Assembly: GCA_018816905.1 (NCBI GenBank)
Contig: JAHIVB010000013.1
Span: 108,880-172,879 of the forward strand
Source of the DNA: Bacillota bacterium
Lineage (GTDB): Bacteria; Bacillota_I; Bacilli_A; Izemoplasmatales; Hujiaoplasmataceae
Reading direction: 5' to 3'
DNA length: 64,000 nt
The notes under the pieces were generated by a model that saw nothing but the letters and a program-made list of their open reading frames with translations, made no database searches and was not told the DNA's origin. Below are positions 12,065-35,050 of the stretch, piece by piece. The stretch's first letter is position 1; each line of letters begins with the position of its first letter. A program made the position numbers and the translations under genes.

Positions 12065-12086
12065 ATAAACCTCCAATGAAATTAAT

Positions 12087-12984: not shown

Positions 12985-13013
12985 TGAAAGAAAAACCTCA
13001 AAAATGAGGTTTT
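12985..13013 (-). terminator. intrinsic terminator at end of buk operon
   Basis: AACCTCA-aaaa-TGAGGTT hairpin followed on the minus strand by a T-rich run. It overlaps the buk stop. Confidence 0.65.
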
Positions 13014-14082
13014 AATAGACTTGAAGTTTTTCTTGTTTTTGTAGAACCGAAAGAGTTCCTTCAGCCAAAGCACGCATTTCATCTTCACCGGGATAAACGG
13101 TAATCGGTTTGATTGGATCGATGGCATCTTTTAAATACTGAATGAACCTTTTACTATATGCAAGACCTCCGGTAATTAGAATTCCATCAATTTTACCCTC
13201 AGCCGCAAAATAAAGGCTTCCGATTTCCTTGATGACATTATAAGCCATCGCATGAAAATAGAATTCTGCTTTTTCGTCTCCGTTTTTAATTCTATTTTCA
13301 ATCTCTTGACCATTCGAAGTATCAAGATAGGATACAAGTCCACCTTTTCCAACTAACATTTTTTGAATTTCTGATTTGTTGAAATCGTTTGAAAAACATA
13401 AATCGATGAGTGGATAGGTTGGAAGCTGGCCGCATCTCTCAGGTGAGAAAGGACCATCGCCACCTAAAGCATTGTTGACATCGACGACTTTTCCTTTTTT
13501 ATGGAGTCCGACACTGATTCCGCCACCGAGGTGACAAACAATCAAATTCAAGTCTTCATAATTTTTGTTCAATACCTTTGCATGCCTTCTGGCAATCGCT
13601 TTTTGGTTGAGAACGTGGAAAATGCTTACTCGATCAATACCACCCAGTCCAGACACTTTGGCAATGTCTTCCATTTCGTCAACACATACCGGATTAACGA
13701 TATAAGCGGGTCGGTTCAGCGGAGAAGCAAGTTCATGGGCAATCAATGCGCCTAAATTTGATGCATGTTCTCCATACCTAGCACTTCGAAGATCATCCAA
13801 CATTTCCTTGTTGACAAGATACGTTCCTCCTTGTTTTAAAGAACGCAACATTCCGCCTCTGCCGATGAATACATCAATGTTTTCCGGAACGTAGTGATGA
13901 AGTTCTAGAAATTCAATGATGATTCTTTTTCTGAATTCAAGTTGGTCAGCGACCGATTTATATTTACTTAATTCTTTCACACTATGTTTTAAGACTGAAT
14001 CCTGAATCAATTTGTCGTTGATAAAGACTGCAACTTTTGTTGAAGTCGATCCGGGATTAATGACTAGAAGCAAGTAATCCAT
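13012..14082 (-). CDS. buk: butyrate kinase (branched-chain fatty acid kinase)
   Basis: N-terminus LLLVINPGSTSTKVAVF, an ASKHP-fold acetate/butyrate kinase signature; 356 aa. Confidence 0.9.
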   Translation of the reverse strand: MDYLLLVINPGSTSTKVAVFINDKLIQDSVLKHSVKELSKYKSVADQLEFRKRIIIEFLELHHYVPENIDVFIGRGGMLRSLKQGGTYLVNKEMLDDLRSARYGEHASNLGALIAHELASPLNRPAYIVNPVCVDEMEDIAKVSGLGGIDRVSIFHVLNQKAIARRHAKVLNKNYEDLNLIVCHLGGGISVGLHKKGKVVDVNNALGGDGPFSPERCGQLPTYPLIDLCFSNDFNKSEIQKMLVGKGGLVSYLDTSNGQEIENRIKNGDEKAEFYFHAMAYNVIKEIGSLYFAAEGKIDGILITGGLAYSKRFIQYLKDAIDPIKPITVYPGEDEMRALAEGTLSVLQKQEKLQVY

Positions 14083-14968
14083 CTTGATTCACCACCGCTA
14101 ATAGAATTGAGTTGAGTTTTGCTTCCATGTTGTCCGCTCTTGAAGTAACAACGATTGGAACTTTTGCACCGATGATGAGTCCAGCTGATTTTCCTTGAGC
14201 AAGAAACACACAGGTTTTATAAAATATGTTGCCTCCGTCCAGGTTAGGAAATACCAGAATGTCGGCCTTCCCAGCGACTGGACTATGAATTCCTTTATGA
14301 ATCACTGATTCCATGGATACTAAATTATCGACTGCAAAGGGACCATCAATTTCAAAGTCGATTTCTTGATTTTTGAAGTGTTCAAGAATCGCTTCAGCAT
14401 CCAAGGTTGACGCAATCTTTGGATTCACTTTTTCAACACTCGAGACAATTCCGACCAAAGGTCTTTGATAACCAAGTGTATGAGAAAGACCTACTGCATT
14501 TTCGACAATCGCTATTTTTTCTTCAACAGAAGGTTGGATCATCATCGCACCGTCTGTCGCAAATAATATTCGATCAAATCCAGGGATTTCTACGATTCCG
14601 ACATGTGTCAGATATTTTTTGCTTTTAATTCCATATTCATTGTTAACGACGCCTTTCAAAAGATATTTAGTGTCAATCAAACCTTTCATGACAATATCTG
14701 CTTTTCCAGCATTAACTAGATCCATCGCAATTTTGGTCGCTTTTGTCGGATCCAATTCGTCGATTACTTTAAAGTTTTTTAAATTGTATTCTTGACACAT
14801 CTGCTCAATCAATGGACCGTCACCAATCAAAATCGGGTCAATGCATTTCCATGACTCAGTTTGAGAAATGGCATCGATGACGACATTGTCATGGGCAAAA
14901 ACGACAACCATTTTGAAGGTCTTACCTTTTTGCAGCAATTGCCTTAAGTCACTGATTTTTTTAAGCAT
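14057..14968 (-). CDS. ptb: phosphate butyryltransferase (phosphotransacylase)
   Basis: PTA/PTB family, 303 aa. It overlaps buk by 26 nt and sits in the classic ptb-buk arrangement. Confidence 0.85.
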   Translation of the reverse strand: MLKKISDLRQLLQKGKTFKMVVVFAHDNVVIDAISQTESWKCIDPILIGDGPLIEQMCQEYNLKNFKVIDELDPTKATKIAMDLVNAGKADIVMKGLIDTKYLLKGVVNNEYGIKSKKYLTHVGIVEIPGFDRILFATDGAMMIQPSVEEKIAIVENAVGLSHTLGYQRPLVGIVSSVEKVNPKIASTLDAEAILEHFKNQEIDFEIDGPFAVDNLVSMESVIHKGIHSPVAGKADILVFPNLDGGNIFYKTCVFLAQGKSAGLIIGAKVPIVVTSRADNMEAKLNSILLAVVNQDGLLASSH

Positions 14969-15554
14969 AGGTCACTCCTGCTTCTAAGACATACTCCCTA
15001 CCTTTACGCAAGGCTTCCATATTGATGTCAAGCATATGAGCTTTCTTCTCACCTAAATACTTGATGAGGACTTTTTCAATTGTCGATTCCACAAATAGAT
15101 TCGTCAATTCAAGATAGGCCCCCATCATGACAATATTGGAGACTTGAATAGAACCAAGGTCGGTTGCGATATCATTGATAGGTATGCCAATGCAAATTGC
15201 TTTGTCCGATGTTACTTGGTCCTTAATGAGTGAAGAATTGTATAAGATAAGCCCTCCATCTTTCATTTTGTCATGGAACTTTTGTAAAGAAGGCAGATTG
15301 AATGCAATTAAATGATTTGCACTCTGAAAAACTGGTGAATTGATCTGTTTTTTTGAAACGATGACACTACAATTCGCTGTTCCACCGCGAGTCTCTGGGC
15401 CATAAGAAGGAAACCAAAGACCGAATAGTTCTTCATATGCAGCACTATATGCGATTAGCTGACCAAACATCATCACGCCTTGTCCGCCAAATCCAGCTAC
15501 TTTAATATTCACATGATCAAACATTTTTTTCACCTGCATCTTTGAAGACGCCAA
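14961..15554 (-). CDS. 2-oxoacid:ferredoxin oxidoreductase gamma subunit
   Basis: GFGGQGV motif and about 197 aa. Start overlaps ptb end. Confidence 0.8.
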   Translation of the reverse strand: MASSKMQVKKMFDHVNIKVAGFGGQGVMMFGQLIAYSAAYEELFGLWFPSYGPETRGGTANCSVIVSKKQINSPVFQSANHLIAFNLPSLQKFHDKMKDGGLILYNSSLIKDQVTSDKAICIGIPINDIATDLGSIQVSNIVMMGAYLELTNLFVESTIEKVLIKYLGEKKAHMLDINMEALRKGREYVLEAGVTYA

Positions 15555-16266
15555 GCGGAAATACTGGAACCATGTTAGACTCTACCCATTTCAAAGCATC
15601 CACTGGAGTCATTCCCCAGTTTACAGGACAAGTCGATAATACTTCGATTAGTGTAAATCCTCGTTTTTCCTTTTGATAGGTAAATGCTTTTTTGATTGCT
15701 TTCTTTGCTTTTATCAATTGTTTTGGGTTGGTAACACTAACTCTTTCAAGATAAGCTACACCGTCAATTTGAGAGAATATTTCACTGATTTTTATCGGGC
15801 TTCCAGTTAAAACTTGGTTTCTGCCATCTTGAGAAGTCGTTGTTCTTTGTCCAATCAAAGTCGTAGGTGCCATTTGGCCACCGGTCATTCCATAAATTGC
15901 ATTATTGATAAATATGACGGTAATGTTTTCGCCACGGTTTGCCGCGTGAATTGTTTCCGCAATCCCTATTGAGGCCAAATCCCCATCTCCTTGGTATGTG
16001 AAAACAATGTTATCCGGACGCACTCTTTTAATTCCAGTTGCTTCTGCACAGGCACGACCATGAGGCGCTTGTTGCATGTCACAATTAAAGAATTCATAGG
16101 AGAATACAGAACATCCAACGCTTGCAACTCCAATTGCATCTCCAATCATTCCAAGTTCTTCTAAAGTTTCTCCGACAAGTTTATGTACGATACCGTGTGT
16201 ACATCCTGGACAATAAGAAAGTTTTTTGTCTGTCAAGCCTTTTGTTTTTTGGTATTTGACTTCCAT
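15517..16266 (-). CDS. 2-oxoacid:ferredoxin oxidoreductase beta subunit (TPP-binding)
   Basis: CPGCTHG Fe-S/TPP motif and GDGD TPP-binding fingerprint. Confidence 0.85.
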   Translation of the reverse strand: MEVKYQKTKGLTDKKLSYCPGCTHGIVHKLVGETLEELGMIGDAIGVASVGCSVFSYEFFNCDMQQAPHGRACAEATGIKRVRPDNIVFTYQGDGDLASIGIAETIHAANRGENITVIFINNAIYGMTGGQMAPTTLIGQRTTTSQDGRNQVLTGSPIKISEIFSQIDGVAYLERVSVTNPKQLIKAKKAIKKAFTYQKEKRGFTLIEVLSTCPVNWGMTPVDALKWVESNMVPVFPLGVFKDAGEKNV

Positions 16267-16267
16267 A

Positions 16268-17335
16268 TTACTTCACCACCTTGTCTTTGAAATTTTTGAT
16301 TGCGTCAACGATTTCCTCTGGTTCTGGAACCATTCCGCCGACACGACCGTAAAATCCAATTTCATGGCGACCTTTATCGGATATCATGACGTCATCGAGC
16401 ATTTGTCCCATGCTCATTTCTGCACATAGAATTCCTTTGACACCACTAGGTATTTCATTGAAAGCTGCTTTTGGATAGGGCCATAAGGAGATTGGACGAA
16501 TCATACCGACTTCGATGCCTTCTTCTTTTAGCGATTCAATTGCTGATCTACAAATTCGAGACATGGTTCCATAAGCAACAATCACATATTCCGGGTTTTC
16601 CATGTTAATCATTTCATATTTTGTTTCATTATTTTTTATTTGTTGATACTTCTTTTGAAGTTGTAAGTTGTGTTGTTCAAGCTCAACTGGATCTAAAAAT
16701 AATGAATTGACGATATTTCTTCCAGGGTGGTTCGCTGTACCTGTCGTCGCATAATCTTTTGCAGGAATGAATCTCTTTTTTACAGGTTTTTCAAAATCAA
16801 CGGTTTCCATCATTTGGCCAATCAGTCCATCAACCAAAACAAGGACTGGATTTCTATAATAATCTGCAATGTCAAAAGACTCTTTCATGATGTCAATCGT
16901 CTCTTGAATGGTTTCAGGGGCATACACAATTAATTGATAATCCCCGTTTCCTCCACCTCTAGTTGCTTGATAGTAATCAGCTTGAGATGGTTGAATTCCT
17001 CCAAGTCCCGGGCCTCCACGCATAACCGAAACGATGACACACGGAAGTTCAGCTCCAGCAATATAAGAAATTCCTTCTTGTTTTAGTGCAATACCAGGTG
17101 AAGATGAAGAGGTCATGACTCTTGCCCCAGCACCAGCAGCTCCATACACCATGTTGATTGCCGCGACTTCAGACTCCGCTTGAACGAAGACTTTCCCTGC
17201 CGCAAGTAGATGTTTCGATAAATACTCAGGTATTTCGTTTTGTGGTGTAATTGGATATCCGAAGAATGCGTCGACTCCCCCTTTGAGAGCAGCTACTGCT
17301 ATTGCTTCGTTTCCTTTCATCAATACTTTAGCCAT
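16268..17335 (-). CDS. 2-oxoacid:ferredoxin oxidoreductase alpha subunit
   Basis: 355 aa with POR/VOR alpha-like domains. Immediately follows the delta-subunit gene. Confidence 0.85.
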   Translation of the reverse strand: MAKVLMKGNEAIAVAALKGGVDAFFGYPITPQNEIPEYLSKHLLAAGKVFVQAESEVAAINMVYGAAGAGARVMTSSSSPGIALKQEGISYIAGAELPCVIVSVMRGGPGLGGIQPSQADYYQATRGGGNGDYQLIVYAPETIQETIDIMKESFDIADYYRNPVLVLVDGLIGQMMETVDFEKPVKKRFIPAKDYATTGTANHPGRNIVNSLFLDPVELEQHNLQLQKKYQQIKNNETKYEMINMENPEYVIVAYGTMSRICRSAIESLKEEGIEVGMIRPISLWPYPKAAFNEIPSGVKGILCAEMSMGQMLDDVMISDKGRHEIGFYGRVGGMVPEPEEIVDAIKNFKDKVVK

Positions 17336-17553
17336 TATTTGTCCACCTCCACTTTGATGACTGAATCAGGACACATCATTGCACAGAAAGCGCATCCGAT
17401 GCACTTTTCCGGTTCGCTCACTCTAATGATGTTATATCCAGATTTGTTAATCGTAGTCTTGTCCTGATATAAAATGTGTTGTGGACAAAACGAAACGCAA
17501 AGAGAACATCCTTTGCACATGTCTTCTTCAAAATAAACTTTACCTTTTGGCAT
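17335..17553 (-). CDS. 2-oxoacid:ferredoxin oxidoreductase delta subunit (2x[4Fe-4S] ferredoxin)
   Basis: Two CxxCxxCxxxCP motifs in 72 aa. Confidence 0.8.
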   Translation of the reverse strand: MPKGKVYFEEDMCKGCSLCVSFCPQHILYQDKTTINKSGYNIIRVSEPEKCIGCAFCAMMCPDSVIKVEVDK

Positions 17554-17563
17554 GTCTTCCTCC

Positions 17564-18211
17564 TTAAAACCATTTTTTTCTTAAATAGATTTGAAGAGGT
17601 AGTAACTCCCCTTCAAATCCATGCTGCTCGCCTACAAGTCTTTGTGAAATGCAGGTATATACGATCGGAAGATTCAATTCATTTGAAACTTCCTTGAGAA
17701 TTAATTCGCCTTCATAAACGTATTGAATCGTCGTTTCTTTGAGAAGATTAGAATTATTGATTAATCCGGTGACATCTCTTCCACTCGAAACTTGAATCTT
17801 TTTTATCAAAGAAATGATTTCTTCTTTGGTCTGTGTTTCTGGTCGAAACACGTTGACCACAAGATATAAATCAATCTCATTCTCGTATTCTTCAAACTGT
17901 CTTAATAATTTGGCTCCTAGATCGTTTCCTCCAAGATCGTAAATTGCCCTGACGTCTTCCTTTTGAAAAGGTAGAAAGACGCGGCCGGATATGTAGGGAA
18001 GATCTGTGAATTTACTATGCTCTTTATCGCTTGAAATGACGTCAATGTTGTTTGTTTTCAGAAGCTCCTCTGATTCTCTGCTTCTAAAATAAGGATTGAT
18101 CACATCCAAGTCGACGACATAGTCCACTTTTTCTTTGATTGCCAGATTAAGAGCAATCTCAGTTTTCCCCGATCCGTAGTATCCTGTCAAAAACAATAAT
18201 CTTTTCATCAT
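17564..18211 (-). CDS. uncharacterised P-loop NTPase embedded in the BCAA-fermentation operon
   Basis: Walker A motif GYYGSGKT. No recognisable catalytic family. It is tightly packed between the ldh and vor genes. Confidence 0.55.
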   Translation of the reverse strand: MMKRLLFLTGYYGSGKTEIALNLAIKEKVDYVVDLDVINPYFRSRESEELLKTNNIDVISSDKEHSKFTDLPYISGRVFLPFQKEDVRAIYDLGGNDLGAKLLRQFEEYENEIDLYLVVNVFRPETQTKEEIISLIKKIQVSSGRDVTGLINNSNLLKETTIQYVYEGELILKEVSNELNLPIVYTCISQRLVGEQHGFEGELLPLQIYLRKKWF

Positions 18212-19281
18212 TACCTTTTGATGTAGTTTGAATGGAGCTTGTTGATGGTTTCGATTCTGTTCTTTGCGAATACTTTTGCAGCGGCGTGGGTCGAGATGTT
18301 TTCTTCTTTGGCAATTCGGTAGATATCTAGTAAACGATCATAGATTTTTTCAATGTCTCTGACGGCTTTATCTTTGATGTATGTCTGCAATTCATGATAT
18401 ACATTGATAAGTCCACCAGCATTGATGACAAAGTCAGGCGCGTATAAAATACCTTTTTCTTTAATCATCATTCCGTGTTTCTCTTCATCCATTAAAACGT
18501 TATTTGCGGATCCTGCGATGATTTTAGCTCTGATTTGAGGGATGGTTTCATCATTTAACTGTGCCCCGAGTGCACAAGGACTGAATACATCAACATTTAA
18601 TCCAAAGATTTGATCAGGTTCCACGTACTCAACCATCGGCAGTTCTTTTTGCATTCTCTTGATGTGAGAAGGGTTGATTTCAGTAAAATATACTTTTTTT
18701 GCTTTTGCTTCTATTAAATATTTAACAAGATAATACCCCGTTTGACCAGCACCTTGAACAGCGAAACTGTATTTAGAAATATCGTCGTCTCCAAATGTCT
18801 CATGTAGAGAGGCACGAATACCATGAAATACGCCAAGTGCGGTTAATGGAGAAGGATTTCCACTCTTCCCTTCCAAACCCACAACATAATCTGTTTCCAT
18901 ATGGACATAATCCATGTCTTTCGTTGAGGTGTTGACGTCTTCCGCTGTGATGTATCTTCCGTTTAAACTTTGAACGTAACGACCTAGTGCTCTAAAATAG
19001 GCTTCACTTTTCACTTTTGAAGCGTCGCCGATTAATACTGTTTTCCCGCCTCCTAAATTCAATCCTGCTGCTGCTGCTTTGTATGTCATGCCACGAGCTA
19101 ATCGGAGTGCATCTAGAACTGCGTCGTCTTCAGAATCATAATTCCAAAGTCTTGTTCCGCCAAGCGCAGGTCCCAGTGTAGTATTGTGTATGCAAGTTAC
19201 TCCTTTCAGTCCAGTTGTTTTGTCATAAAAATAAACAATTTGTTCATAGCCATGCTTTTCCATGTAGTCAAACTTATTCAT
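18211..19281 (-). CDS. leucine (branched-chain amino acid) dehydrogenase
   Basis: Glu/Leu/Phe/Val dehydrogenase signature GLKGVTCIHNTTLGPALGGTRLW. 356 aa. Preceded by RBS GGAGGAAAATAA. Confidence 0.9.
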   Translation of the reverse strand: MNKFDYMEKHGYEQIVYFYDKTTGLKGVTCIHNTTLGPALGGTRLWNYDSEDDAVLDALRLARGMTYKAAAAGLNLGGGKTVLIGDASKVKSEAYFRALGRYVQSLNGRYITAEDVNTSTKDMDYVHMETDYVVGLEGKSGNPSPLTALGVFHGIRASLHETFGDDDISKYSFAVQGAGQTGYYLVKYLIEAKAKKVYFTEINPSHIKRMQKELPMVEYVEPDQIFGLNVDVFSPCALGAQLNDETIPQIRAKIIAGSANNVLMDEEKHGMMIKEKGILYAPDFVINAGGLINVYHELQTYIKDKAVRDIEKIYDRLLDIYRIAKEENISTHAAAKVFAKNRIETINKLHSNYIKR

Positions 19282-19467: not shown

Positions 19468-20481
19468 TTAGGCTTTCTTTTTGTATGAAATACCCTTCAA
19501 AGGAATTCTGAATCGACAGAGCTTGCCACCTTCCAAAACGTTTTCGAGGGATTCTACTTTTAGTTTTTGATCGAGAATGACTTCAAATGGAAATTTAGCA
19601 AACCCACCTGAACAGTAACACCAAATCGGTGAAATGTCATGACTTTCTTGTAATACCGCTTCTCTTGCAAATGCACAGTGACATGCGTAGTAATGCATTT
19701 CTTTATCAGTGGTTGCTGATAAATATTTTTCTGTGTCATAAGGTATTTTAGTAATGTAAAGGAAATCGTCACGAATGACTCCGGATAAAACTTCTGGATT
19801 CTTTGATACAAAATCAATGACTTCATCAGTAATCGCTTGTTCAAACCAGACTTTACCTGCTTCTTTGTATTTAATCAATTCTTCCACTTTTCTACGGTGT
19901 AGACCTTCTAAATATTCTTCAAAAGAATTTGAGTTTTCGTATTCAACTTTCTCCGGTAGCATCGCTTCTTTCGACATTCCATGATTGTTTCCGGCTAATA
20001 CTTTTTTCACTTCTTCTTCAGGTAAGGCAGCATGCAGTCTTCTCATAAATTCTGCTGTAAACAAAGGAATTTGTTTCGGGCTCATTCCTAGACTTGGGAT
20101 ATCAAGATCTTTTGTGACCAATTCTAAAATCTCTTGTCCATGCAGTTGTTTGAGTTTTAATAGAATATTATCGACGACATCGAGTATTCCGGTATATTTT
20201 GTTAGTTCAATGAAGCAGTCGTTCTTTTTCAGTATCCTCATATATCGCATTAAAACGATGAATTCATCCAAAGAAGATCTTTTTTCGCTGTAGAGAAAAG
20301 CAATGAAATCATTGATGTCATCGGTCGTCATTTCGGATACAGAAGGCACTTTGTGCTTCAGACCCATAAAATTCCAAAATTCAATAATCAGTGCTTTTGC
20401 GAACTGAAATTCTTTTGTTCCTAAATTGTTTGATAAATATAAATGTTCTAGCTTTTCTAGAACCATTAAATCTTCTTTCAT
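19468..20481 (-). CDS. hypothetical protein with C-terminal Cys-rich motif (CHC...WCYCSGG...C)
   Basis: 337 aa with no recognisable family. Likely translationally coupled, with its start 3 nt after the P5C dehydrogenase stop. Confidence 0.55.
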   Translation of the reverse strand: MKEDLMVLEKLEHLYLSNNLGTKEFQFAKALIIEFWNFMGLKHKVPSVSEMTTDDINDFIAFLYSEKRSSLDEFIVLMRYMRILKKNDCFIELTKYTGILDVVDNILLKLKQLHGQEILELVTKDLDIPSLGMSPKQIPLFTAEFMRRLHAALPEEEVKKVLAGNNHGMSKEAMLPEKVEYENSNSFEEYLEGLHRRKVEELIKYKEAGKVWFEQAITDEVIDFVSKNPEVLSGVIRDDFLYITKIPYDTEKYLSATTDKEMHYYACHCAFAREAVLQESHDISPIWCYCSGGFAKFPFEVILDQKLKVESLENVLEGGKLCRFRIPLKGISYKKKA

Positions 20482-20484
20482 AAT

Positions 20485-22041
20485 TTATAAGGCTTCACTG
20501 ACGGATTTGCCTTGCATATGAAGAACTAAGTAATCGGGTCCTCCCGCCTTTGAATCGGTTCCACTCATGTTGAATCCGCCAAAGGGTTGATAACCTACGA
20601 TTGCGCCAGTGCACTTTCTATTAAGATAGAGGTTCCCAACATGAAAGTCTTCTCTAGCTTTTTCAAGGTGGAAACGGTCATTTGAAATGATTGCTCCTGT
20701 AAGTCCGAATTGGGTATTATTAACAACGTCCAATCCCTCTTCAAATGAAGTTACTTTTGTGACTGAAAGCACAGGTCCAAAGATTTCTTCCTGCATCATT
20801 CTTGAAGATGGATCTAAATCAGTAAATACGGTTGGCTCGATGAACCATCCGGTTTCATCATGGGCGTTGCCACCGACTAAAAGCTTCCCTTCTTGCTTTC
20901 CAATTTCAATATATCCAAGTATGGACCGATAGGCTAAATGATCGTTGACAGGTCCCATGTTATTGATGAAAGAACGAGGGTCACCCATAGAAATCTTTTC
21001 CGTTAGCTCTTTGATGTATTTTATCACATCGTCGTAAACATTCTCATGAATGATTGCTCTGGAACAAGCACTGCATTTTTGACCACTGAACCCAAAAGCA
21101 CTTTTCACGATTGCATCAGCTGCCATAAATGGATCTATTCCATCATCAACCAAGATTGCGTCTTTACCGCCCATTTCAGCTATGACTCTTTTGAGCCATA
21201 TTTGACCAGGCTGCACTTTTGCTGCATTCTCGTAGATTGCCTGCCCAACTTCTTTTGATCCAGTGAAAGAGACAAATCTGGTCTTTGGATGTTTGACGAC
21301 GTAATCACCTATTTCAGAACCTCTTCCAGGCATGAAATTGACGACCCCATTGGGAAGCCCCGCTTCCTGCAGAAGTTCAACAAATTTATATGCAATGACT
21401 TGTGTTGTCATCGCCGGTTTTAATAATACTGTATTTCCACAGACAATGGCGGCTGATGTCATTCCCGTCAAAATAGCCAGAGGAAAATTCCATGGAGTGA
21501 TTATCGCCCCTACTCCAAGCGGGATATAAAAGTATTCATTTCTTTCAAGGTTTGGTCTGCTTAGAACAACATCGTCAATCCGGGATAAAGATAGCATTTG
21601 TCTTCCATAGTATTCCAAAAAGTCAATTGCTTCTGCTGTATCCGCATCCGCTTCTGCCCATGGCTTCCCAGCTTCAATCGTCATCAGAGCACTGAATTCA
21701 AATTTCCTTCTCCTTAGAATATTAGCCGCTTTGAATAAAACGTCGCTACGAATTTTGGGATTCACTTTCTTCCAAGTCTTGAAAGCTTCCAAGGCAGAAT
21801 TCATCGCGAGGTTTGCCTCATCTAATCCTGCTTGAGAAATTCTTCCAACGATTTGATCTTTCTTGGCAGGGTTCACTGAAGTATACATTTTGTCAGTAAA
21901 AATCAACTTTCCGTTGATAATCAAAGGATAATCTTTTCCTAGAGATGCTTCTACTTTGTTTAGTGCTTCAGTGTATAACTTTCTGTTGTGTTCTAGTCCA
22001 AAATCTGTTAATGGTTCTGTTACGTAAGGATAAATTGCCAT
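20485..22041 (-). CDS. rocA: 1-pyrroline-5-carboxylate (L-glutamate gamma-semialdehyde) dehydrogenase
   Basis: 518 aa ALDH. The N-terminus ([27 protein letters not shown]) is typical of RocA/PruA-type enzymes. Confidence 0.85.
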
Positions 22042-22068
22042 AATAAATCATTCCTTTCATTTATTAAT

Positions 22069-23214
22069 TTATACGACCGATTGCTCGACTGCATTTAATT
22101 CTTTTTCACTGAATCGATTCAGTTTAAATAGATCTGGAGAAATCTCATTCTTCCGATTTAAAATCATATTGGAAATGATTTCACCTGTCATTGGTGAAAA
22201 CATGAATCCATGTCCAGAAAAACCACAAGCAATGTAAAATCCCTTTAAATTCTCAGCCTCGGCAATAATCGGTTGCTTATCAGGAGAAACATTATAAGAC
22301 CCACCCCATTGACGTATGACTCGCAATTCTCCGATTTTAGGTGCGATGTGACAAATCGTTTTTGCCATTTCATCAAGAAAAGACCAACTGGATGAAATGT
22401 CATGCGAATGCACTTGGTTAGGGGTAGACCTACCCATCAAAAAACTACCATGAGGTACTTGCTGGCAATAAAAATTTTGTGTGAAAGACATCAGCATCGG
22501 TCCTTGGATTTTCTCAATCGGTTCGGTCACGAGAATCTCATGATTTTCAGAGAAAACCGGAATGTCGATTCCAACCATATCACCTATTTCTTTCGCAAAT
22601 CCGCCGGCTGCATTAACGACCACCGAAGTATCGATTTCATGTTTATCAGTGATTACTTTTGTGATTTTGTTGTTTTCAACTATAATCTCTTTCACTTCTT
22701 CGAAAAAGAAGAATTGAACACCTAATCGCTTCGCTGCCAAATAGAATGCTTCTGTCATTTTGAAAGGATTTAAATGTCCGTCGGTTTGGCAGAAAGTGGC
22801 ACCTACAAAAGCGGATGTATTTAAATAAGGTACGATTTTCAATGATTCTTCAACCGAAAGAAGTTTTGCAGGTATTCCAAGACTGTTCTGTAATTTAACA
22901 TTCTTTGAAAAACGATCCAATTCCGGTTTGTCTGTAGCTAGAATCAAATATCCTTCTTGTTTAAATTCAATATCTCCTTCATACTCGAGTTCTTCTTTTG
23001 CGGTTTCAAAAAACTCGATGCTTTTCTTAGCCAATATACAATTGGCTTCTGTTCCCCATTGTTGACGTATTCCTGCGCCACATCGTCCCGTTGCACCGCT
23101 TGTCAAATAAGACTTGTCCACAACAACGATGTTTTTCATTCCTTTTTTTGCCAAATGATATGCAATGCTACAACCTGAGATGCCTGCTCCGATGATGACT
23201 TGATTAGCTTTCAT
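22069..23214 (-). CDS. FAD-dependent oxidoreductase (DAO family; sarcosine-oxidase-beta/HcnC/OoxB-like)
   Basis: GAGISG dinucleotide-binding motif at the N-terminus; 381 aa. Confidence 0.8.
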   Translation of the reverse strand: MKANQVIIGAGISGCSIAYHLAKKGMKNIVVVDKSYLTSGATGRCGAGIRQQWGTEANCILAKKSIEFFETAKEELEYEGDIEFKQEGYLILATDKPELDRFSKNVKLQNSLGIPAKLLSVEESLKIVPYLNTSAFVGATFCQTDGHLNPFKMTEAFYLAAKRLGVQFFFFEEVKEIIVENNKITKVITDKHEIDTSVVVNAAGGFAKEIGDMVGIDIPVFSENHEILVTEPIEKIQGPMLMSFTQNFYCQQVPHGSFLMGRSTPNQVHSHDISSSWSFLDEMAKTICHIAPKIGELRVIRQWGGSYNVSPDKQPIIAEAENLKGFYIACGFSGHGFMFSPMTGEIISNMILNRKNEISPDLFKLNRFSEKELNAVEQSVV

Positions 23215-23485
23215 CTATTGCACCATCCTTGATTGCTCTTAATTCAACCCCAATAATCAGAGGTCTTGTTTTCTGAATCGGAACATCTTTCATTGCTTTG
23301 TGAGTGAATTTCGCTATTTCTCTTTGAATCAAGGCAGAACATGTTTGCCCTTGGCATGGCCCCATTCCAACTCTTAATTGCCTTTTCAAATCTTCAAAAT
23401 TAGTATATCCTTCTTCAAGACATCGCTTGACATCTGCGAGTGTGACGTCTTCACATCTGCAAATGATGATTTTGTCATCTCTCAT
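23204..23485 (-). CDS. BFD-like [2Fe-2S]-binding small subunit
   Basis: CRCE...C.GQTC pattern in 93 aa. Overlaps the neighbouring genes. Confidence 0.7.
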   Translation of the reverse strand: MRDDKIIICRCEDVTLADVKRCLEEGYTNFEDLKRQLRVGMGPCQGQTCSALIQREIAKFTHKAMKDVPIQKTRPLIIGVELRAIKDGAIDES

Positions 23486-23960
23486 CTGGGCACCCTATCG
23501 TAATGAAATCATAAAGATATTCTTTACTTACTTCTACTGTAATCAGTTTCGTTTTTTCCTGTTTTCGACTATCAAGAACAGAAAGAATCTTTCCTTTAGA
23601 AATGATGTTTCCTTCACGGTTCAGTGCGTTCCAATTTTCATCTTTTTTTGGTGACGGTAAGAACTCATAAGGAATTTTGAAAATTGCTTTGTCATTCAAG
23701 ATACTAGCAACAATAATTGCTAGACCAGGACACTTTGTAACACATATTCCACACCCCGTACATAATGAAGTATCGACGATGGGTCTCGTATTGATGTCTA
23801 CACCAATCTTGATTGCATCAAAAGGGCAAGATGTTTCACATGGGTTGCATGGGATTTCTTGGTAACACTCAATGATGGCTTTTGGCTTCACTAATATCGA
23901 AGATTCAGGAAAACAAGAGATTACTTGTTCCTTCGAAGGAACACCGTTTTTTTCTAACAT
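23475..23960 (-). CDS. 4Fe-4S dicluster ferredoxin-domain subunit
   Basis: CNPCETSCP and CTGCGICVTKCP motifs; 161 aa. Confidence 0.7.
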   Translation of the reverse strand: MLEKNGVPSKEQVISCFPESSILVKPKAIIECYQEIPCNPCETSCPFDAIKIGVDINTRPIVDTSLCTGCGICVTKCPGLAIIVASILNDKAIFKIPYEFLPSPKKDENWNALNREGNIISKGKILSVLDSRKQEKTKLITVEVSKEYLYDFITIGCPDER

Positions 23961-25045
23961 TGTCCTTCCTCCTTCATTTGAAGAAGACCTTCTCTGGTTT
24001 TCTTACCAAAAGGACCGCTTCTTAATCCTTCTAGTTGAGATATCAAATCTTGATGAATGGATTCGTCATTATCAATCGTTCCTAACAATCTTCTTGCGGC
24101 AAAAAGACCTGTCAGTCGTCCTTCAACCATGGCTGAACTCGCCTCTTCCACACCGGAGAGATCTCCACAAGCAAAGATGTTATCTACGGATGTTTCATGA
24201 CATTCAGAAACCTTAGGAACCCATCCTCCTAGTTCAGGAATAAACAGGATTCTAGCTCCAACCATCGACAGTAATTGATGCATTGGAGAAAGTCCAACTG
24301 AAACGCATACAGCATCGACTTCAACGGTTTCTTCCGTTCCAGGAATAGGATTCCAGGAATCATCTAAATCTGCGATGACGATACTCTCTACACAAGCACT
24401 GCCGTTCGCTTTTAATATGGATTTTGATGTATGGATTGGAACACCAAGTCTTCTCAATTTAGAGGCATGAACCAAATACCCGCCAATCAGAGGGGCCGCT
24501 TCAAGTACGCTCACGACTTTCACGCCTGCTTGCATCAACTGGTATGATACAATCAGTCCAATGTTTCCAGATCCAACCATAACTATTTTATTTCCTGGCA
24601 AAACACCATATTGATTCATCAGTGTTTGAACTGCCCCTGCACCATAGATGCCAGGTAAATCATTGTTTTCAAAAGCGATGAATTTTTCGCTTGCGCCTGT
24701 AGCAACCACGATGACTTCTGATTTAATTTTATAATATCGACCGTTTTGAACGATCGTGCATACTTTGTCAGGATATAATCCTGTGACAGTAGCATCGAGA
24801 ACGACCTCGATCAAATCTTTATATTTTTCATATTCTTGAATTAGTAATTCCGCTATCTTGAATCCACGAACACTTGCATATTGTTTTTCAGAACCAAAAA
24901 ACTTATGGGTTTGTTTTACGAGTTGTCCGCCAAGTGAATGACTACGCTCGACGATCGTAACGGATTGTCCGAGACTAGCAGCTTGAATCGCACAGGAAAG
25001 CCCTGCAGGACCTCCCCCAATGATGAGCATAGGTGTCTTTTTCAT
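23954..25045 (-). CDS. NAD(P)/FAD-binding pyridine-nucleotide-disulfide-type oxidoreductase (sarcosine-oxidase-alpha/HcnB/OoxA-like)
   Basis: N-terminal GGGPAG motif and a second Rossmann motif GSGNIG; 363 aa. Confidence 0.8.
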   Translation of the reverse strand: MKKTPMLIIGGGPAGLSCAIQAASLGQSVTIVERSHSLGGQLVKQTHKFFGSEKQYASVRGFKIAELLIQEYEKYKDLIEVVLDATVTGLYPDKVCTIVQNGRYYKIKSEVIVVATGASEKFIAFENNDLPGIYGAGAVQTLMNQYGVLPGNKIVMVGSGNIGLIVSYQLMQAGVKVVSVLEAAPLIGGYLVHASKLRRLGVPIHTSKSILKANGSACVESIVIADLDDSWNPIPGTEETVEVDAVCVSVGLSPMHQLLSMVGARILFIPELGGWVPKVSECHETSVDNIFACGDLSGVEEASSAMVEGRLTGLFAARRLLGTIDNDESIHQDLISQLEGLRSGPFGKKTREGLLQMKEEGQC

Positions 25046-25347
25046 ATAAGTTCACCTTTTCCGGGTTGACTAAACACTCTCATTCCTTGTTCAATTTTTG
25101 TCATGCAAGTTCTGACATTTGGAACATCATTGACGGTCATATTACATGAACCGCAGTTCCCAATTGCACAATAAAATCCTCGACTCCTTTTATAGTGAAT
25201 GCTTTTGCTTAACTCCTTGATTCCAAGTGCATGCAATGCGCTTGCAATCGTGTCGCCTTCTCTACCAAGGACTTCTTTTCCGTTATAGAAGAAAGCAATT
25301 TCTTGATGATTCGAAAACTCTAGTATTGGATGTTTTTCAATCCTCAT
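25042..25347 (-). CDS. [2Fe-2S]-binding subunit (sarcosine-oxidase-alpha N-terminal-like)
   Basis: C.IGNCGSC...C pattern; 101 aa. This is the first gene of the cluster. Confidence 0.7.
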   Translation of the reverse strand: MRIEKHPILEFSNHQEIAFFYNGKEVLGREGDTIASALHALGIKELSKSIHYKRSRGFYCAIGNCGSCNMTVNDVPNVRTCMTKIEQGMRVFSQPGKGELI

Positions 25348-27198: not shown

Positions 27199-27708
27199 TT
27201 ACAGTTCGATCCAATACCTTAAAACATAGTGGTCAATGTCGTATATTTTATTTTCCAGTCTTCCTCCACAAGCCTCAATCGATCTTTTACTTCCAAGGTT
27301 ATCTTCATTACAAGTCATCAATACTGCAGCAAATCCCATTTCTTTCGCTATTTCGAGTGCTTTGGATAGCATTAAATTCGAATATCCTTTTTTTCGTTCA
27401 CTTGGTCTTATGCCTCCGCCAATGTGACCACCAAGTGCAAAAAGTCGATCATTCAGCCTATGACGGATGTTCACACATCCAAGAACTCTCTCCCCTTCGA
27501 TAAGAAAATAAGTGGAAGAAGGAACGTAGTTTTCCGGTCGAGTTTCTTCAAATTCGTCTCTTCGTTTTTCTTCCATCCATTCTTCATATGTCTTGTCAAA
27601 CATTCTTCCTGCGTACGGAATTATTTTTTCGTCATTCCATTCCTCACAAAAATCTAAATAAGCATTTTTTAGTTCAATGGATGGTTTAATTAATTTTATT
27701 TCTTGCAT
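27199..27708 (-). CDS. GNAT-family N-acetyltransferase
   Basis: 169 aa; acetyl-CoA-binding region R.ERKKGY. Confidence 0.7.
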   Translation of the reverse strand: MQEIKLIKPSIELKNAYLDFCEEWNDEKIIPYAGRMFDKTYEEWMEEKRRDEFEETRPENYVPSSTYFLIEGERVLGCVNIRHRLNDRLFALGGHIGGGIRPSERKKGYSNLMLSKALEIAKEMGFAAVLMTCNEDNLGSKRSIEACGGRLENKIYDIDHYVLRYWIEL

Positions 27709-29104
27709 TTTTCCAAGCCCTTTCGAATCGTTTTACAATCTCTTTGAATTCTTCGATTTTTACACTTCCATATCCAATTACGAATGTGGTTACAGGACGA
27801 TCTTCAGAAACAAATCTGAATTCTTCCATTCCATAGATTTTCAAATCTTGCTTTTTTGCATAATCAATCATTTGCAATTCATCGGTTTCATCTAGAAAAC
27901 TGAGGGTAAAATGCAGACCCGCTTCTTCGCCTTCGATTTTGATGACGGATCCGAATGCGGATCTTTTCAGGAGTTCGATGAACAAATCCCGTTTTTCCTT
28001 GTATATGAGTTTCATTCGATTCAAATGTCTTTCAAACCCTTTGGATTTCAAAAACAATGAAAGGGCGACTTGATCGTGGATTGGAACTGGGTTAGCATAA
28101 AAAGAATACCGATCCAAAAGTATCGTTGCGAGTGGTTTGGGTAAAACCATATAGCTGATTCTTAAAGTTGGAGACAAACTTTTGGAAAAACTGTTAAGAT
28201 AAATGACTTTATCAAACGAATCAAGACCCTTGAGTGCTGGAATTGGATTCCCTGAAAATCTGAATTCACTGTCATAATCATCTTCTATGATATATCTTGT
28301 TTTGGATTCGTTCGCCCAACTCAAAAGTTCCATTCTCCTTTTGATTGGCATTACAATTCCTGTCGGAAATTGATGACTTGGAGAGATATGCAGAATATTG
28401 CTCGTTGTTTTATTGATTTCTTCGATATCCATCCCTGATTCATCCAACGAGATGAAATCAAGTTTTACGCCAAAAGCCTCATATAGTTTCTTGCTTTTGG
28501 GATAGCCCGGAGTCTCAATTGCGTATCTTTGGTTCTTACCTAGTAAAAACAAAATCATCTGAATCATATGCTCACTTCCTGAACATATGAGTATTTGATC
28601 TATATTTGTTTTGATTCCTCGATAAGCTAGTAGATAAGTTTGAATCTCTTCTCTCAATTCTTTGAATCCAAGTAGTTCAGAATCGTTAATTCGTTGATTA
28701 AAGCCATCTAGATAAGAATCACGATTGAATTTAGCCATTAATTCATAAGGAAAAGACAGTTCGTCGACTTTGCTTGTTTTCAAATCGTAGTGGTACGTTT
28801 TTACTTTCGCTTTTATGGTTTGGTTTTCCATTTCTTCAGTTCTCTGAGGGATGGTTAGTTTTGTAAATGGCTCAACAAAATATCCGGATTTTTCAACACT
28901 TCGAATATATCCTTCCGCTTTTAATTGAGCATAAGCTGTTTCAACTGTAATTTGAGATATTTCAAGATGATGAGCTAATCGTCTTTTCGAAGGTAGTTTT
29001 TCATTCGCAATCAATTTATTATCCTGAATCATATCCTTGATTTGCGTGTATAGTTGCTCATATTTTGGAATTCCTGACTCTATATCAAAAAAGATTGTAA
29101 TCAT
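27686..29104 (-). CDS. pdxR: MocR/GabR-type PLP-dependent transcriptional regulator, probable PdxR
   Basis: N-terminal GntR wHTH (PSKRRLAHHLEISQITVETAY) fused to an aminotransferase-fold domain. It is transcribed divergently from pdxST. Confidence 0.75.
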   Translation of the reverse strand: MITIFFDIESGIPKYEQLYTQIKDMIQDNKLIANEKLPSKRRLAHHLEISQITVETAYAQLKAEGYIRSVEKSGYFVEPFTKLTIPQRTEEMENQTIKAKVKTYHYDLKTSKVDELSFPYELMAKFNRDSYLDGFNQRINDSELLGFKELREEIQTYLLAYRGIKTNIDQILICSGSEHMIQMILFLLGKNQRYAIETPGYPKSKKLYEAFGVKLDFISLDESGMDIEEINKTTSNILHISPSHQFPTGIVMPIKRRMELLSWANESKTRYIIEDDYDSEFRFSGNPIPALKGLDSFDKVIYLNSFSKSLSPTLRISYMVLPKPLATILLDRYSFYANPVPIHDQVALSLFLKSKGFERHLNRMKLIYKEKRDLFIELLKRSAFGSVIKIEGEEAGLHFTLSFLDETDELQMIDYAKKQDLKIYGMEEFRFVSEDRPVTTFVIGYGSVKIEEFKEIVKRFERAWKNARNKIN

Positions 29105-29217
29105 CGTATCACCATCTGACCTTATGTATTTTTACTAATCTGATTATTTAATTAATACCAGAATCAGTTATAATATATATTGGAAATCAGTATTTGTCAA
29201 TATAAAGGAGAAAACAG

Positions 29218-30093
29218 ATGGATAAAACAAGATATGAACTCAATAAAGAGTTAGCACAAATGTTAAAAGGTGGCGTTATTATGGACGTTACCAATGCAGA
29301 ACAAGCGAAAATCGCTGAAGCTGCAGGGGCTTGTGCCGTTATGGCATTGGAAAGGATTCCTGCAGACATACGTAAAGTAGGCGGAGTTTCAAGAATGAGT
29401 GATCCAAGACTCATTAAAGAAATTCAAGCTGCCGTAACAATTCCCGTGATGGCTAAAGTCAGAATCGGACATTTTGTCGAAGCAGAGATTCTAGAAGCAC
29501 TTGAAATTGATTATATCGACGAATCTGAGGTCTTATCTCCTGCAGATGATATCTACCATATCGATAAGGCGAACTTCAAAGTTCCTTTTGTATGTGGAGC
29601 TAAAAACCTAGGAGAAGCTTTGAGAAGAATTGCTGAGGGTGCATCGATGATTCGAACCAAAGGTGAGCCTGGAACCGGAGATATCATTCAAGCAGTCAGA
29701 CATATGAGACTGATTCAATCCGAAATCAGAAGAGTGTCTTCGATGAGGGAAGATGAACTTTACGAAGCCGCAAAACAATTCCAAGTACCTTTAGATTTAT
29801 TAAAACAAGTTCATGAACTAGGAAAACTTCCAGTCGTGAATTTCGCAGCCGGAGGAGTCGCAACACCTGCCGATGCCGCATTAATGATGAAACTTGGCGC
29901 AGAAGGTGTATTTGTTGGATCTGGAATATTTAAATCTGGAGACCCTGCAAAACGTGCCGCTGCGATTGTACAAGCCGTCACCAATTTCAATGATTCAGCC
30001 TTACTAGCCAAAATTTCTGAAAACCTAGGTGAGGCAATGGTCGGTATCAATGAAGAGGAAATAAACTTATTAATGGCACAACGTGGAGAATAA
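29218..30093 (+). CDS. pdxS: pyridoxal 5'-phosphate synthase lyase subunit PdxS
   Basis: Highly conserved sequence GGVIMDV..EQA.IAE.AGA.AVMALER.PADIR..GGV.RM. 291 aa; RBS AAGGAG. Confidence 0.95.
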
Positions 30094-30097
30094 TTTC

Positions 30098-30664
30098 ATG
30101 ACAATCGGTTTACTTGCATTACAAGGCGCATTCATAGAACATGAAAAAGTATTGCAAAGTCTTGGCGTCGACTACTTTGAAATTAGACAATTAAGTGACT
30201 TATCAAAAAAAATGGATGGCTTGATTCTCCCTGGAGGGGAATCCACAGCCATGGGTAAATTACTGAAAGATTTAGAGTTGTTTTCCCCACTTAGAAAAAT
30301 GATTGAAGATGGATTACCCGTTTTCGGGACTTGTGCAGGATTGATACTTCTCGCAAAAACCCTTGAAAATGATTCAAGAATCTTTTTTCAAACGATGGAC
30401 ATAACCGTTAAAAGAAATGCTTTTGGTAGACAACTTGCGAGTTTTATGAAACTTGATTTCTTTGGAGACAAGGAAATCCCAATGATATTCATCCGTGCTC
30501 CCTACATCCATTCCGTCGGAGCGAATGTTCAAGTGTTATCTTCTTTTGACGGTCTGATTCTTGCGGCTAGAGAAAAAAATATGCTCGTAACTGCATACCA
30601 TCCTGAACTGACAAAAGATACGACGGTACATCAATATTTTCTAGAAATGATTAAGAACAGATAA
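30098..30664 (+). CDS. pdxT: pyridoxal 5'-phosphate synthase glutaminase subunit PdxT
   Basis: Start is MTIGLLALQGAF (RBS GGAG 9 nt upstream). Triad region contains GTCAG. Confidence 0.9.
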   Translation: MTIGLLALQGAFIEHEKVLQSLGVDYFEIRQLSDLSKKMDGLILPGGESTAMGKLLKDLELFSPLRKMIEDGLPVFGTCAGLILLAKTLENDSRIFFQTMDITVKRNAFGRQLASFMKLDFFGDKEIPMIFIRAPYIHSVGANVQVLSSFDGLILAAREKNMLVTAYHPELTKDTTVHQYFLEMIKNR

Positions 30665-33992: not shown

Positions 33993-34109
33993 ATAGTTTC
34001 CTCCTTGTACATATAACTTTATTGTATCATTTTTTTCATAAAATACAATCATATTTTCAATGAATTCATTATAGAAAAACGAGAAGGATTCTCCCTCTCG
34101 TTACAATAA

Positions 34110-34622: not shown

Positions 34623-34623
34623 T

Positions 34624-35049
34624 TTATGAATTTAGAACGAAAGAGAATTCTGCTTCACAAGCGGTTTCGTTTCCAACATAGGCTATCCCTTTTCCAATTC
34701 CAAATTTAGCTTTGAATTTAGTGATTTCAACTTCGATTCTCAGTACGTCCCCCGGAATGACTTTTCGTCTGAATTTCGCATAATTAACACCAGCGAAATA
34801 GACGATTTTCCCTGCGTATTCTTCTTTGGATAACAATGTAACTGCGCCAACTTGGGCGATGGCTTCAATGATTAACACACCGGGCATCACATGTTCTTGC
34901 GGAAAATGGCCTTGAAAGAATGGTTCATTGACAGTGACACACTTTTCGCCTGTCGCACTTACACCTGGATTGATTTCCAATATTTTGTCAATCATCAAAA
35001 ATGGATAACGATGGGGAATAATCTCTTGAATTTGATTACTTGTCAACAT
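34624..35049 (-). CDS. fabZ: 3-hydroxyacyl-ACP dehydratase FabZ
   Basis: Hotdog-fold sequence PHRYPFLMIDKI...HFP..HVMPGVL. Start moved to MLTSNQ (RBS GGGAGGG). Confidence 0.9.
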   Translation of the reverse strand: MLTSNQIQEIIPHRYPFLMIDKILEINPGVSATGEKCVTVNEPFFQGHFPQEHVMPGVLIIEAIAQVGAVTLLSKEEYAGKIVYFAGVNYAKFRRKVIPGDVLRIEVEITKFKAKFGIGKGIAYVGNETACEAEFSFVLNS

Positions 35050-35050
35050 T

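Follow-up and report, generated by a model that had tools for sequence, protein, structure and literature searches.

Gene content and transcription unit

The operon described here lies on the minus strand of a 64,000-nucleotide (nt) stretch of contig JAHIVB010000013.1 (assembly GCA_018816905.1, positions 108,880 to 172,879), below called the window. Its source is an uncultured wall-less anaerobe, a Mycoplasmatota/Izemoplasma-like relative. The operon holds seven genes (Table 1). The first five encode the subunits of a predicted flavin- and iron-sulfur (Fe-S)-containing L-proline dehydrogenase (L-ProDH), here named alpha-N, alpha-core, gamma, delta, and beta, and are followed by rocA for a delta-1-pyrroline-5-carboxylate (P5C) dehydrogenase (P5CDH) and by a gene for a 337-amino-acid (aa) protein. 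All seven open reading frames (ORFs) had been described in an earlier note made from the DNA letters alone; they were recovered at the same positions and on the same strand, and its domain calls for the subunits agreed with Pfam and NCBIfam.

Genes 1–5 overlap by 4, 7, 11, and 11 nt, and 27 nt separate the end of the beta gene from the rocA start, which bears out the earlier description of overlapping genes directly upstream of rocA. The rocA stop is followed after 3 nt by the 337-aa ORF, or after 18 nt should the true start be Met6, which lines up with the first residue of most homologues in the family alignment. On the 5′ side, a hairpin with a U-run stands directly after the stop of an ABC-2 permease gene. 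It folded at −13.2 kcal/mol (z −4.5; 0 of 200 shuffles equally good) and is kept in the related loci L006–L008 (L004–L091 label the related loci or contigs that were compared with the window, and WC30 a Mycoplasmatota relative). The hairpin on the 3′ side folded at −11.4 kcal/mol (z −2.8), and compensatory changes in its stem in L006 and L007 preserve the pairing. The automatic terminator scan overlooked both hairpins, which were noticed in the sequence by eye and then borne out by folding. Between the seven genes, the automatic scan gave just chance-level matches inside coding sequence. Because hairpins flank the genes and the scan between them stayed at chance level, the seven genes form one transcription unit; a separate unit for rocA was not seen.

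Table 1. Features of the predicted proline operon and its surroundings (positions in the window)
Feature	Position	Strand	Remarks
Upstream intrinsic terminator AAAGGACTTCGGTCCTTTTTT, ends the ABC-transporter unit	25435-25415	minus	5′ operon boundary
Promoter region	25395-25372	minus	extended -10 TGaTATCAT at 25380-25372 and overlapping cre-like operator
cre-like operator TGTAAGCGCTTTAT	25393-25380	minus	overlaps the extended -10; CcpA/cre assignment inferred
alpha-N subunit gene, 101 aa	25347-25042	minus	ORF
alpha-core subunit gene, 363 aa	25045-23954	minus	ORF
gamma subunit gene, 161 aa	23960-23475	minus	ORF
delta subunit gene, 93 aa	23485-23204	minus	ORF
beta subunit gene (DAO family), 381 aa	23214-22069	minus	ORF
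rocA, P5C dehydrogenase, 518 aa	22041-20485	minus	ORF
337-aa DUF6144-related protein gene	20481-19468	minus	ORF
Downstream intrinsic terminator, closes the operon	19430-19391	minus	read by eye and folding
Own extended -10 TGTTATAAT of the leucine dehydrogenase-VOR-ptb-buk operon	19348-19340	minus	
Second cre-like site, leucine-dehydrogenase operon	19334-19321	minus	

Subunit domains and cofactor motifs

Domains were called with Pfam and NCBIfam models, and motif conservation was counted across 72–85 orthologues, depending on the subunit. Alpha-N is a [2Fe-2S] protein (Pfam Fer2_4, E 8.5e-26), and its motif C60-x4-C65-x2-C68-x12-C81, 100% conserved in 72 orthologues, agrees with the published one (PMC4575208). 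Alpha-core is a two-Rossmann oxidoreductase for flavin adenine dinucleotide (FAD) and NAD(P)H (Pyr_redox_2, E 1.9e-34), with GxGxxG at residues 10 and 158; its second beta-alpha-beta unit ends in an acidic residue. Gamma matched Fer4 families (dicluster) and is a 2x[4Fe-4S] ferredoxin-like protein with a C-terminal extension of ~80 aa; its C32-x5-C38-x2-C41-x3-C45 and C67-x2-C70-x2-C73-x3-C77-P motifs are 100% conserved in 79 orthologues. Delta is a BFD-like [2Fe-2S]/Fe-4Cys protein (SO_alpha_A3, E 8.6e-12; Fer2_BFD, E 4.6e-10) with a C9-x-C11-x32-C44-x4-C49 motif that is likewise 100% conserved among orthologues. Beta, a FAD flavoprotein (Pfam DAO, E 1.1e-68), is predicted to be the L-proline-oxidizing catalytic subunit, and at least 95% of the 85 sequences compared retain its putative flavin mononucleotide (FMN) motif Arg301-x-Trp303. 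By the definitions in PMC4575208 (Arg-x-Trp for FMN, two GxGxxG, and Cys-x4-Cys-x2-Cys-x11-12-Cys), the cofactor motifs of the Thermococcales proline dehydrogenase (PDH) are all present here and are 95–100% conserved across the orthologues. The RocA protein passed both curated P5CDH thresholds, with 819.4 bits on NF002852 (cutoff 648) and 739.3 bits on TIGR01237 (cutoff 659.65).

Relationship to archaeal and bacterial enzymes

The archaeal L-ProDH kind of enzyme has been known biochemically since 2001–2005, and its alpha subunit is a single chain of ~54 kDa with an N-terminal [2Fe-2S]-type domain. The proline oxidation that the earlier note called unconventional is therefore so only in a relative sense. 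The enzyme kind is known, having been characterized in archaea; the window holds a bacterial member in which alpha is further split and the operon is joined to P5CDH.

Direct comparison with archaeal sequences was made with the alpha4beta4 enzyme 1Y56 of Pyrococcus horikoshii, and the Thermococcus profundus PdhA/F/X/B subunits were taken from literature descriptions. Among all Protein Data Bank (PDB) sequences, beta matched the P. horikoshii L-ProDH beta (1y56_B) with 269.6 bits (E 3.5e-79, 39% identity over the full length). SoxB and dimethylglycine dehydrogenase gave about 115–120 bits (SoxB E about 1e-33), and glycine oxidases 68–103 bits (E 1e-18 to 1e-28). On the curated soxB model TIGR01373, beta scored 173 bits against a cutoff of 529, and it fell far under every cutoff of the curated soxB, ThiO, and DadA models. 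A grouping of beta with sarcosine or glycine oxidases was thus not seen, the L-ProDH beta match being far stronger. Alpha-N (weak match to residues 14–88 of 1y56_A, PH1363), alpha-core, and delta aligned collinearly with the N-terminus, middle, and C-terminus of PH1363. The top PDB match of delta was the PH1363 C-terminus (1y56_A 412–483, E 1.3e-3), in which the CxC...CxxxxC cysteines align. On the soxA model, alpha-N covered positions 15–99, alpha-core 170–481, and delta 518–595. On this sequence evidence, the first five genes are a bacterial counterpart of the Thermococcales alpha-beta-gamma-delta L-ProDH.

Watanabe and colleagues (PMC4575208) equated the N-terminal ~120 residues of the archaeal L-ProDH alpha with a separate [2Fe-2S] subunit of bacterial HcnABC-like enzymes. 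Judged from its sequence, alpha-N is the counterpart of this N-terminal segment, of HcnA, and of the OdhC gamma subunit. For the T. profundus delta subunit, similarity to the C-terminal ~90 residues of PH1363 has been described (PMC4575208, S2 Table). The gene order in Thermococcus litoralis is alpha OCC_00347, gamma 00342, delta 00337, and beta 00332, homologous to T. profundus pdhA/pdhF/pdhX/pdhB (PMC4364671); this alpha-gamma-delta-beta order is common to the window, where alpha is cut in two. The Thermococcales enzymes (T. profundus PdhA/PdhB/PdhF/PdhX, P. horikoshii PDH2, T. litoralis) are made of the same modules, i.e., Rossmann alpha, DAO beta, ferredoxin-like gamma, and small Cys-cluster delta, and cytosolic FAD/Fe-S chemistry from L-proline to P5C is predicted for the window as well. 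Unlike them, the window module is bacterial, comes from a mesophilic low-GC host, and has five polypeptides, with a 101-aa [2Fe-2S] protein and a 363-aa flavoprotein in place of one alpha chain. Its bacterial operon is also joined to P5CDH, or in other lineages to an aldehyde:ferredoxin oxidoreductase (AOR). With PDH1 of P. horikoshii (PH1363/PH1364, 1Y56), the module shares the 39% identical beta and the Arg-x-Trp FMN motif; PDH1 is a heterooctamer without the ferredoxin-like gamma found in the window, and its alpha is one 493-aa chain that binds ATP rather than FAD (PMC4575208, S2 Table).

Several bacterial systems are built of related parts. The alpha-N, alpha-core, and delta proteins correspond to the N-terminal half of SoxA in the sarcosine oxidase SoxABDG, and beta is homologous to SoxB. 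Unlike SoxABDG (alpha about 960 aa), the window has no folate-binding SoxA C-terminal half, SoxD, or SoxG, and carries an additional 2x[4Fe-4S] subunit and Fe-S clusters, which SoxA has lost. A separate small [2Fe-2S] subunit, a Rossmann alpha, and a DAO beta are also found in HcnABC, the D-hydroxyproline dehydrogenase LhpBEF, and OdhABC, and FAD, FMN, and Fe-S cofactors would be common to them and the window module. Those enzymes are membrane-associated alpha4beta4gamma4 complexes of aerobes with the BFD-like cluster within alpha and no 4Fe-4S subunit, and they have other substrates and products, none giving an aldehyde for a downstream P5CDH. The conserved, separate delta and gamma genes place the window module outside this three-gene type of HcnABC, D-hydroxyproline (D-HypDH), and opine (OpnDH) dehydrogenases. 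PutA or PutB/PutC with RocA (Bacillus) follow the same pathway from proline via P5C/glutamate semialdehyde to glutamate and employ the same RocA-type second enzyme. Unlike in PutA/PutB, the first enzyme predicted here is a DAO-fold multi-subunit Fe-S flavoenzyme and not a beta8alpha8-barrel PRODH, and the predicted pathway has no quinone-linked membrane step. PutA and PutB are absent from the 64-kb window, the stretch to which this check extended.

Distribution and gene neighborhood

Relatives were sought in one genome per GTDB species, which yielded at least 586, and the best 80 loci (49–69% identity) were studied. In a 90%-identity protein collection, beta had more than 4,500 relatives at E ≤1e-30. 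The best 120 of those listed were all from Izemoplasmatales, Acholeplasmataceae, Mycoplasmatota, or 'Bacilli/Firmicutes' metagenome-assembled genomes (MAGs), and the window beta was 100% identical to a protein of a 'Firmicutes bacterium' MAG. Database names for the homologues were 'sarcosine oxidase subunit beta' and 'FAD-dependent oxidoreductase'. The best 80 loci belonged to Izemoplasmatales, Acholeplasmataceae, Sedimentibacter and other Tissierellales, Alkaliphilus, Acidaminobacter, Christensenellales, Oscillospiraceae, Peptococcaceae, Negativicutes, Halanaerobiales, Atribacterota, Marinitoga, Synergistetes, Zixibacteria, and Sumerlaeota. When searched with the window proteins (tblastn), essentially every sufficiently long locus among them had the five genes in unchanged order, and alpha was encoded by two separate ORFs in all 71 of 71 loci.

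The genes next to the module were compared across the same loci. In 27 loci, a RocA-type P5CDH gene follows the beta gene at a distance of 14–33 nt; in one Peptococcaceae locus, this distance is 105 nt. A second, unrelated P5CDH family (TIGR01236; 758 and 739 bits, cutoff 613.6) adjoins the module in 13 other loci, either upstream or downstream. In seven loci (L033, L035, L038, L058, L060, L065, and L084; about 9.1–11.8 kb; including Alkaliphilus pronyensis and two Acidaminobacter species), the P5CDH position downstream is occupied by a polyferredoxin gene and then a tungsten-type AOR gene (AFOR_N and AFOR_C), which suggests a ferredoxin-linked glutamate-semialdehyde oxidation step. Genes for a PepQ-like Xaa-Pro dipeptidase, PepD, and an M19 dipeptidase are found downstream in Sedimentibacter-type loci. 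Nine loci have upstream genes for sigma-54 activators of the PrdR-like family, whose regulators are known from operons for proline reductase; scores on the PrdR model were 793, 732, and 564 bits (cutoff 795). Because three independent aldehyde-oxidizing enzymes, proline-releasing enzymes, and PrdR-like regulators adjoin the module, the likely route is from L-proline via P5C/glutamate semialdehyde to glutamate, and the neighboring genes point to L-proline as the substrate independently of the subunit comparisons.

Two loci depart from the common layout. In L086 (Synergistetes), tandem beta (DAO) genes at 4918–6036 and 6127–7218, whose products are 46% and 52% identical to the window beta, follow a single alpha-N/alpha/gamma/delta set, an arrangement that recalls the OdhB1/OdhB2 'subunit exchange' of opine dehydrogenases. 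In L074 (Zixibacteria), about 2.4 kb are inserted between the alpha-core and gamma genes (2149–4552).

Proposed pathway and alternatives

The operon is likely to be catabolite-repressible and to oxidize L-proline to L-glutamate by means of an archaeal-type complex of five polypeptides and RocA. A non-PutA route from proline to glutamate, in which an archaeal-PDH-like dehydrogenase feeds RocA, had been proposed in the earlier note and is well supported; the archaeal parallel is backed by the likeness to 1y56_B, the T. litoralis gene order, the conserved motifs, and the comparative gene context. The five products would assemble into a cytosolic complex with the alpha chain split into a [2Fe-2S] piece and a FAD/NAD(H) piece. 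L-proline would be oxidized to P5C on the beta FAD, and the electrons would pass via an FMN at the alpha/beta interface into an Fe-S wire of two [2Fe-2S]-type centers (alpha-N and delta) and two [4Fe-4S] clusters (gamma). They may then arrive at the flavin/NAD(H) site of alpha-core, at a soluble ferredoxin-type acceptor, or at both. After spontaneous opening of P5C to glutamate semialdehyde, RocA would form glutamate with NAD+.

Several points weigh against this pathway. To our knowledge, there is no bacterial member of the complex with enzymology. For a fermenter that has no respiratory chain, oxidizing proline (about −0.12 V) poses a thermodynamic difficulty, and the proline/P5C couple is too positive for unaided reduction of NAD+ or ferredoxin. 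No proline transporter, racemase, or prolidase was found in the 64-kb window (precomputed Pfam calls, identical contigs). Alpha-core is slightly nearer to SoxA (E 9e-20) than to PH1363 (E 8e-15) among its PDB matches. The archaeal enzymes and their bacterial cousins fail to reduce NAD(P)+ in vitro (PMC4575208, S2 Table). Finally, the Bradyrhizobium japonicum OdhB2 is reported to stand near the archaeal L-ProDH beta subfamily, yet to be inactive on L-proline (PMC4575208), so the likeness of beta to archaeal L-ProDH is no guarantee of proline specificity.

The energetic difficulty would be lifted if the complex worked by flavin-based electron confurcation, oxidizing L-proline together with reduced ferredoxin and reducing two NAD+, by analogy with the Ldh-EtfAB lactate system. 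We regard this as conceivable but unlikely. It is suggested by the NAD(H)-type Rossmann subunit, the 2x[4Fe-4S] subunit, and neighboring ferredoxin-reducing enzymes (AOR with polyferredoxin in seven loci, and a 2-oxoacid:ferredoxin oxidoreductase just downstream in the window). If true, confurcation would explain how strict fermenters without a respiratory chain oxidize proline, why one complex combines an NAD(H)-binding flavoprotein with a dedicated 2x[4Fe-4S] subunit, and why the archaeal enzymes reduce no NAD+ with proline alone in vitro. In the library searched, no relevant paper turned up on a bacterial version of the proline complex or on one that bifurcates or confurcates electrons.

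Another N-substituted or cyclic amino acid could be the substrate, such as trans-4-hydroxy-L-proline, D-proline or D-hydroxyproline, sarcosine, pipecolate, or an opine, with RocA acting on the resulting aldehyde or on P5C from elsewhere, e.g., ornithine. Hydroxyproline, too, would yield a RocA-compatible hydroxy-P5C. The superfamily of HcnABC, D-HypDH, OpnDH, and SoxAB uses these same subunits, the homologues carry the name 'sarcosine oxidase subunit beta' in databases, and an octopine dehydrogenase near the archaeal L-ProDH beta is inactive on proline (PMC4575208). We nevertheless consider a substrate other than L-proline quite improbable, given the scores of beta (270 bits with L-ProDH beta vs 120 with SoxB, and well under the soxB model cutoff) and the co-localization of two unrelated P5CDH families, prolidase, and PrdR-like regulators with the module. 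For sarcosine, no folate-binding (GCV_T) domain, SoxD, or SoxG subunit was present among the window genes. For D-hydroxyproline, the required DapA-like deaminase was not present, and RocA stayed below the cutoff of the alpha-ketoglutarate semialdehyde dehydrogenase model (350 vs 770 bits). Opine cleavage gives no aldehyde for the neighboring dehydrogenase.

An O2-linked enzyme, i.e., a proline oxidase or an NADH oxidase-coupled system with which an aerotolerant host would dump electrons on O2, after the model of the mycoplasma glycerol-3-phosphate oxidase, would fit the many oxidases in the DAO family, the NADH oxidases in the Pyr_redox_2 family of alpha-core, and the aerotolerant isolates among the relatives (e.g., Peloplasma aerotolerans). 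It appears very unlikely: an oxidase needs no elaborate four-cluster Fe-S wire, the module is common among strict anaerobes (Atribacterota, Acidaminobacter, Sedimentibacter, Marinitoga, and Synergistetes), where it is paired with the oxygen-sensitive tungsten AOR, and the characterized heterooligomeric members of the family are dehydrogenases, not oxidases (PMC4575208).

If the L-proline pathway is correct, a large set of misnamed genes would encode the first step of proline catabolism in anaerobes without PutA across many bacterial phyla. Metabolic reconstructions would then change for peptide-fermenting bacteria of sediments, guts, and digesters, among them Izemoplasmatales, Atribacterota, Sedimentibacter, and Acidaminobacter. 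The genes would also offer mesophilic versions of an enzyme already employed in proline biosensors, and would raise a sharp bioenergetic question as to which acceptor takes the electrons; cultured carriers of the module exist, among them Peloplasma aerotolerans, Mycoplasmatota WC30, Alkaliphilus pronyensis, and Acidaminobacter hydrogenoformans.

The 337-aa protein

The last gene product was reported in the earlier note to have no recognizable family. Its own match to Pfam DUF6144 is indeed below the gathering cutoff (19 bits against 28.8, E 0.0015), but 40 of 43 aligned homologues match DUF6144 at E ≤0.01 (best 2.1e-8). The family comprises 316 clusters at 90% identity and 488 at 50% identity (E ≤1e-3). 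Its members are mostly 320–335 aa long, with some forms of 210–250 aa without the first ~100 residues, and the invariant residues include C267-H268-C269, C288, C290, and C322. The AlphaFold model (pLDDT 93.7) was compared with PDB structures; in the model, the C-domain resembles V4R/H-NOX/Bet3 folds and the helical N-domain integrase core-binding domains.

The earlier note had counted this Cys-rich protein as part of the pathway, where it could be a sixth subunit, an Fe-S/flavin maturation factor, or a proline- or redox-sensing regulator. In favor of such a role are the distance of 3–18 nt from the rocA stop with no terminator in between, hence co-transcription; the retention of the arrangement in L006–L009, down to 42–49% identity; the invariant Cys/His cluster; and the modeled likeness of the C-domain to ligand sensors (V4R/H-NOX) and of the N-domain to integrase core-binding domains. 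In L004 and L005, a homologue also stands just after another DAO/BFD/Pyr_redox flavoenzyme operon (glycerol). However, the gene adjoins rocA solely in the immediate clade of the window, L006–L009. The otherwise syntenic L018 has no copy between rocA and the leucine-dehydrogenase gene, about 70 other module-bearing loci lack the gene, and in WC30 the homologue lies 4.4 kb off, behind NUDIX, copper-ATPase, OsmC, and nitroreductase genes. Distant family members are solitary in unrelated, partly archaeal-looking neighborhoods, including one with ribosomal-protein genes. DNA binding by the N-domain is doubtful because throughout the family this domain is acidic (median pI 5.4, net charge −4). A function in the proline pathway therefore seems improbable. 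We conclude that the gene shares the transcript in the window but does not help to define the proline system, and that it is a passenger or accessory gene of this lineage. The product is most likely a metal- or ligand-binding protein of the sensor type, an assignment made with low confidence.

A full-length homologue (31% identical) was found in L091 at 6001–7017. Nearby is an archaeal-type cluster that encodes ribosomal proteins S13/S4/S11 and an RNA polymerase subunit D containing an Fe-S domain, so that the family is not confined to Mycoplasmatota.

Promoter and putative catabolite control

The 14-mer TGTGTAAGCGYTTT occurs in exactly two copies in the 64 kb (0.05 expected). At the proline operon, the copy at 25395–25382 overlaps the extended -10; at the leucine-dehydrogenase operon, the other copy, at 19336–19323, lies just 3′ of the -10. 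The operator form shared by both promoters, TGTGTAAGCG(C/T)TTT, is conserved 5′ of the module in many Mycoplasmatota loci. Of 18 related loci examined, 13 have TGWAAGCGYTTW at the matching position 5′ of the first gene, and four more (L011, L012, L014, and L016) have it farther upstream. The consensus of the catabolite-responsive element (cre) is TGWAARCGYTWNCW, which TGWAAGCGYTTW fits with one mismatch. The shared cre-like 14-mer at both promoters and the fit of TGWAAGCGYTTW to the consensus suggest that both amino-acid catabolic operons may be under CcpA-type catabolite repression. A scan with the generic cre consensus at two mismatches was uninformative (119 matches vs 89 expected), the shared 14-mer alone being significant. 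The LacI-family gene at 3187–4212 was considered as a candidate ccpA and rejected, since its product reached 142 bits on the ccpA model against a cutoff of 442 and scored better on RbsR-like models.

Other features of the window

Directly downstream of the proline operon, a complete branched-chain amino-acid fermentation operon with its own promoter occupies 13012–19281 (minus strand). It encodes a Leu/Val-type amino-acid dehydrogenase, a 215-aa P-loop protein, a four-subunit 2-oxoacid:ferredoxin oxidoreductase, phosphate butyryltransferase, and butyrate kinase; L006–L009 and L018 retain the synteny of this operon with the proline operon. The 215-aa protein (17564–18211, minus strand) has a GSGKT P-loop and matched no Pfam or NCBIfam family; in five related loci, its gene lies between the genes for the amino-acid dehydrogenase and the ferredoxin oxidoreductase delta subunit. 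At 27686–30664, a gene for a PdxR-type regulator (GntR and aminotransferase domains) is divergent from pdxS/pdxT, and the synteny of this pair with the proline operon is kept in L006–L008 and partly in WC30.

Two ORFs at 4339–12076 (minus strand) are very large, with 1654 and 951 aa. The 1654-aa product, encoded next to the RbsR-like LacI-family regulator, has repeated bacterial surface Ig-like and CBM_4_9 domains (identical contig); it is probably a surface protein that binds or degrades glycans. A flotillin gene is also among the window neighbors. A type II fatty-acid synthesis cluster at 33357–43321 (minus strand) contains accBCDA, fabH, fabK-like, fabD, fabG, fabF, fabZ, and acyl carrier protein genes, together with a gene of the biotin/lipoate protein ligase family (BPL_LplA_LipB). 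Classical mollicutes are without fatty-acid synthesis, and the full cluster is thus notable in a Mycoplasmatota relative.

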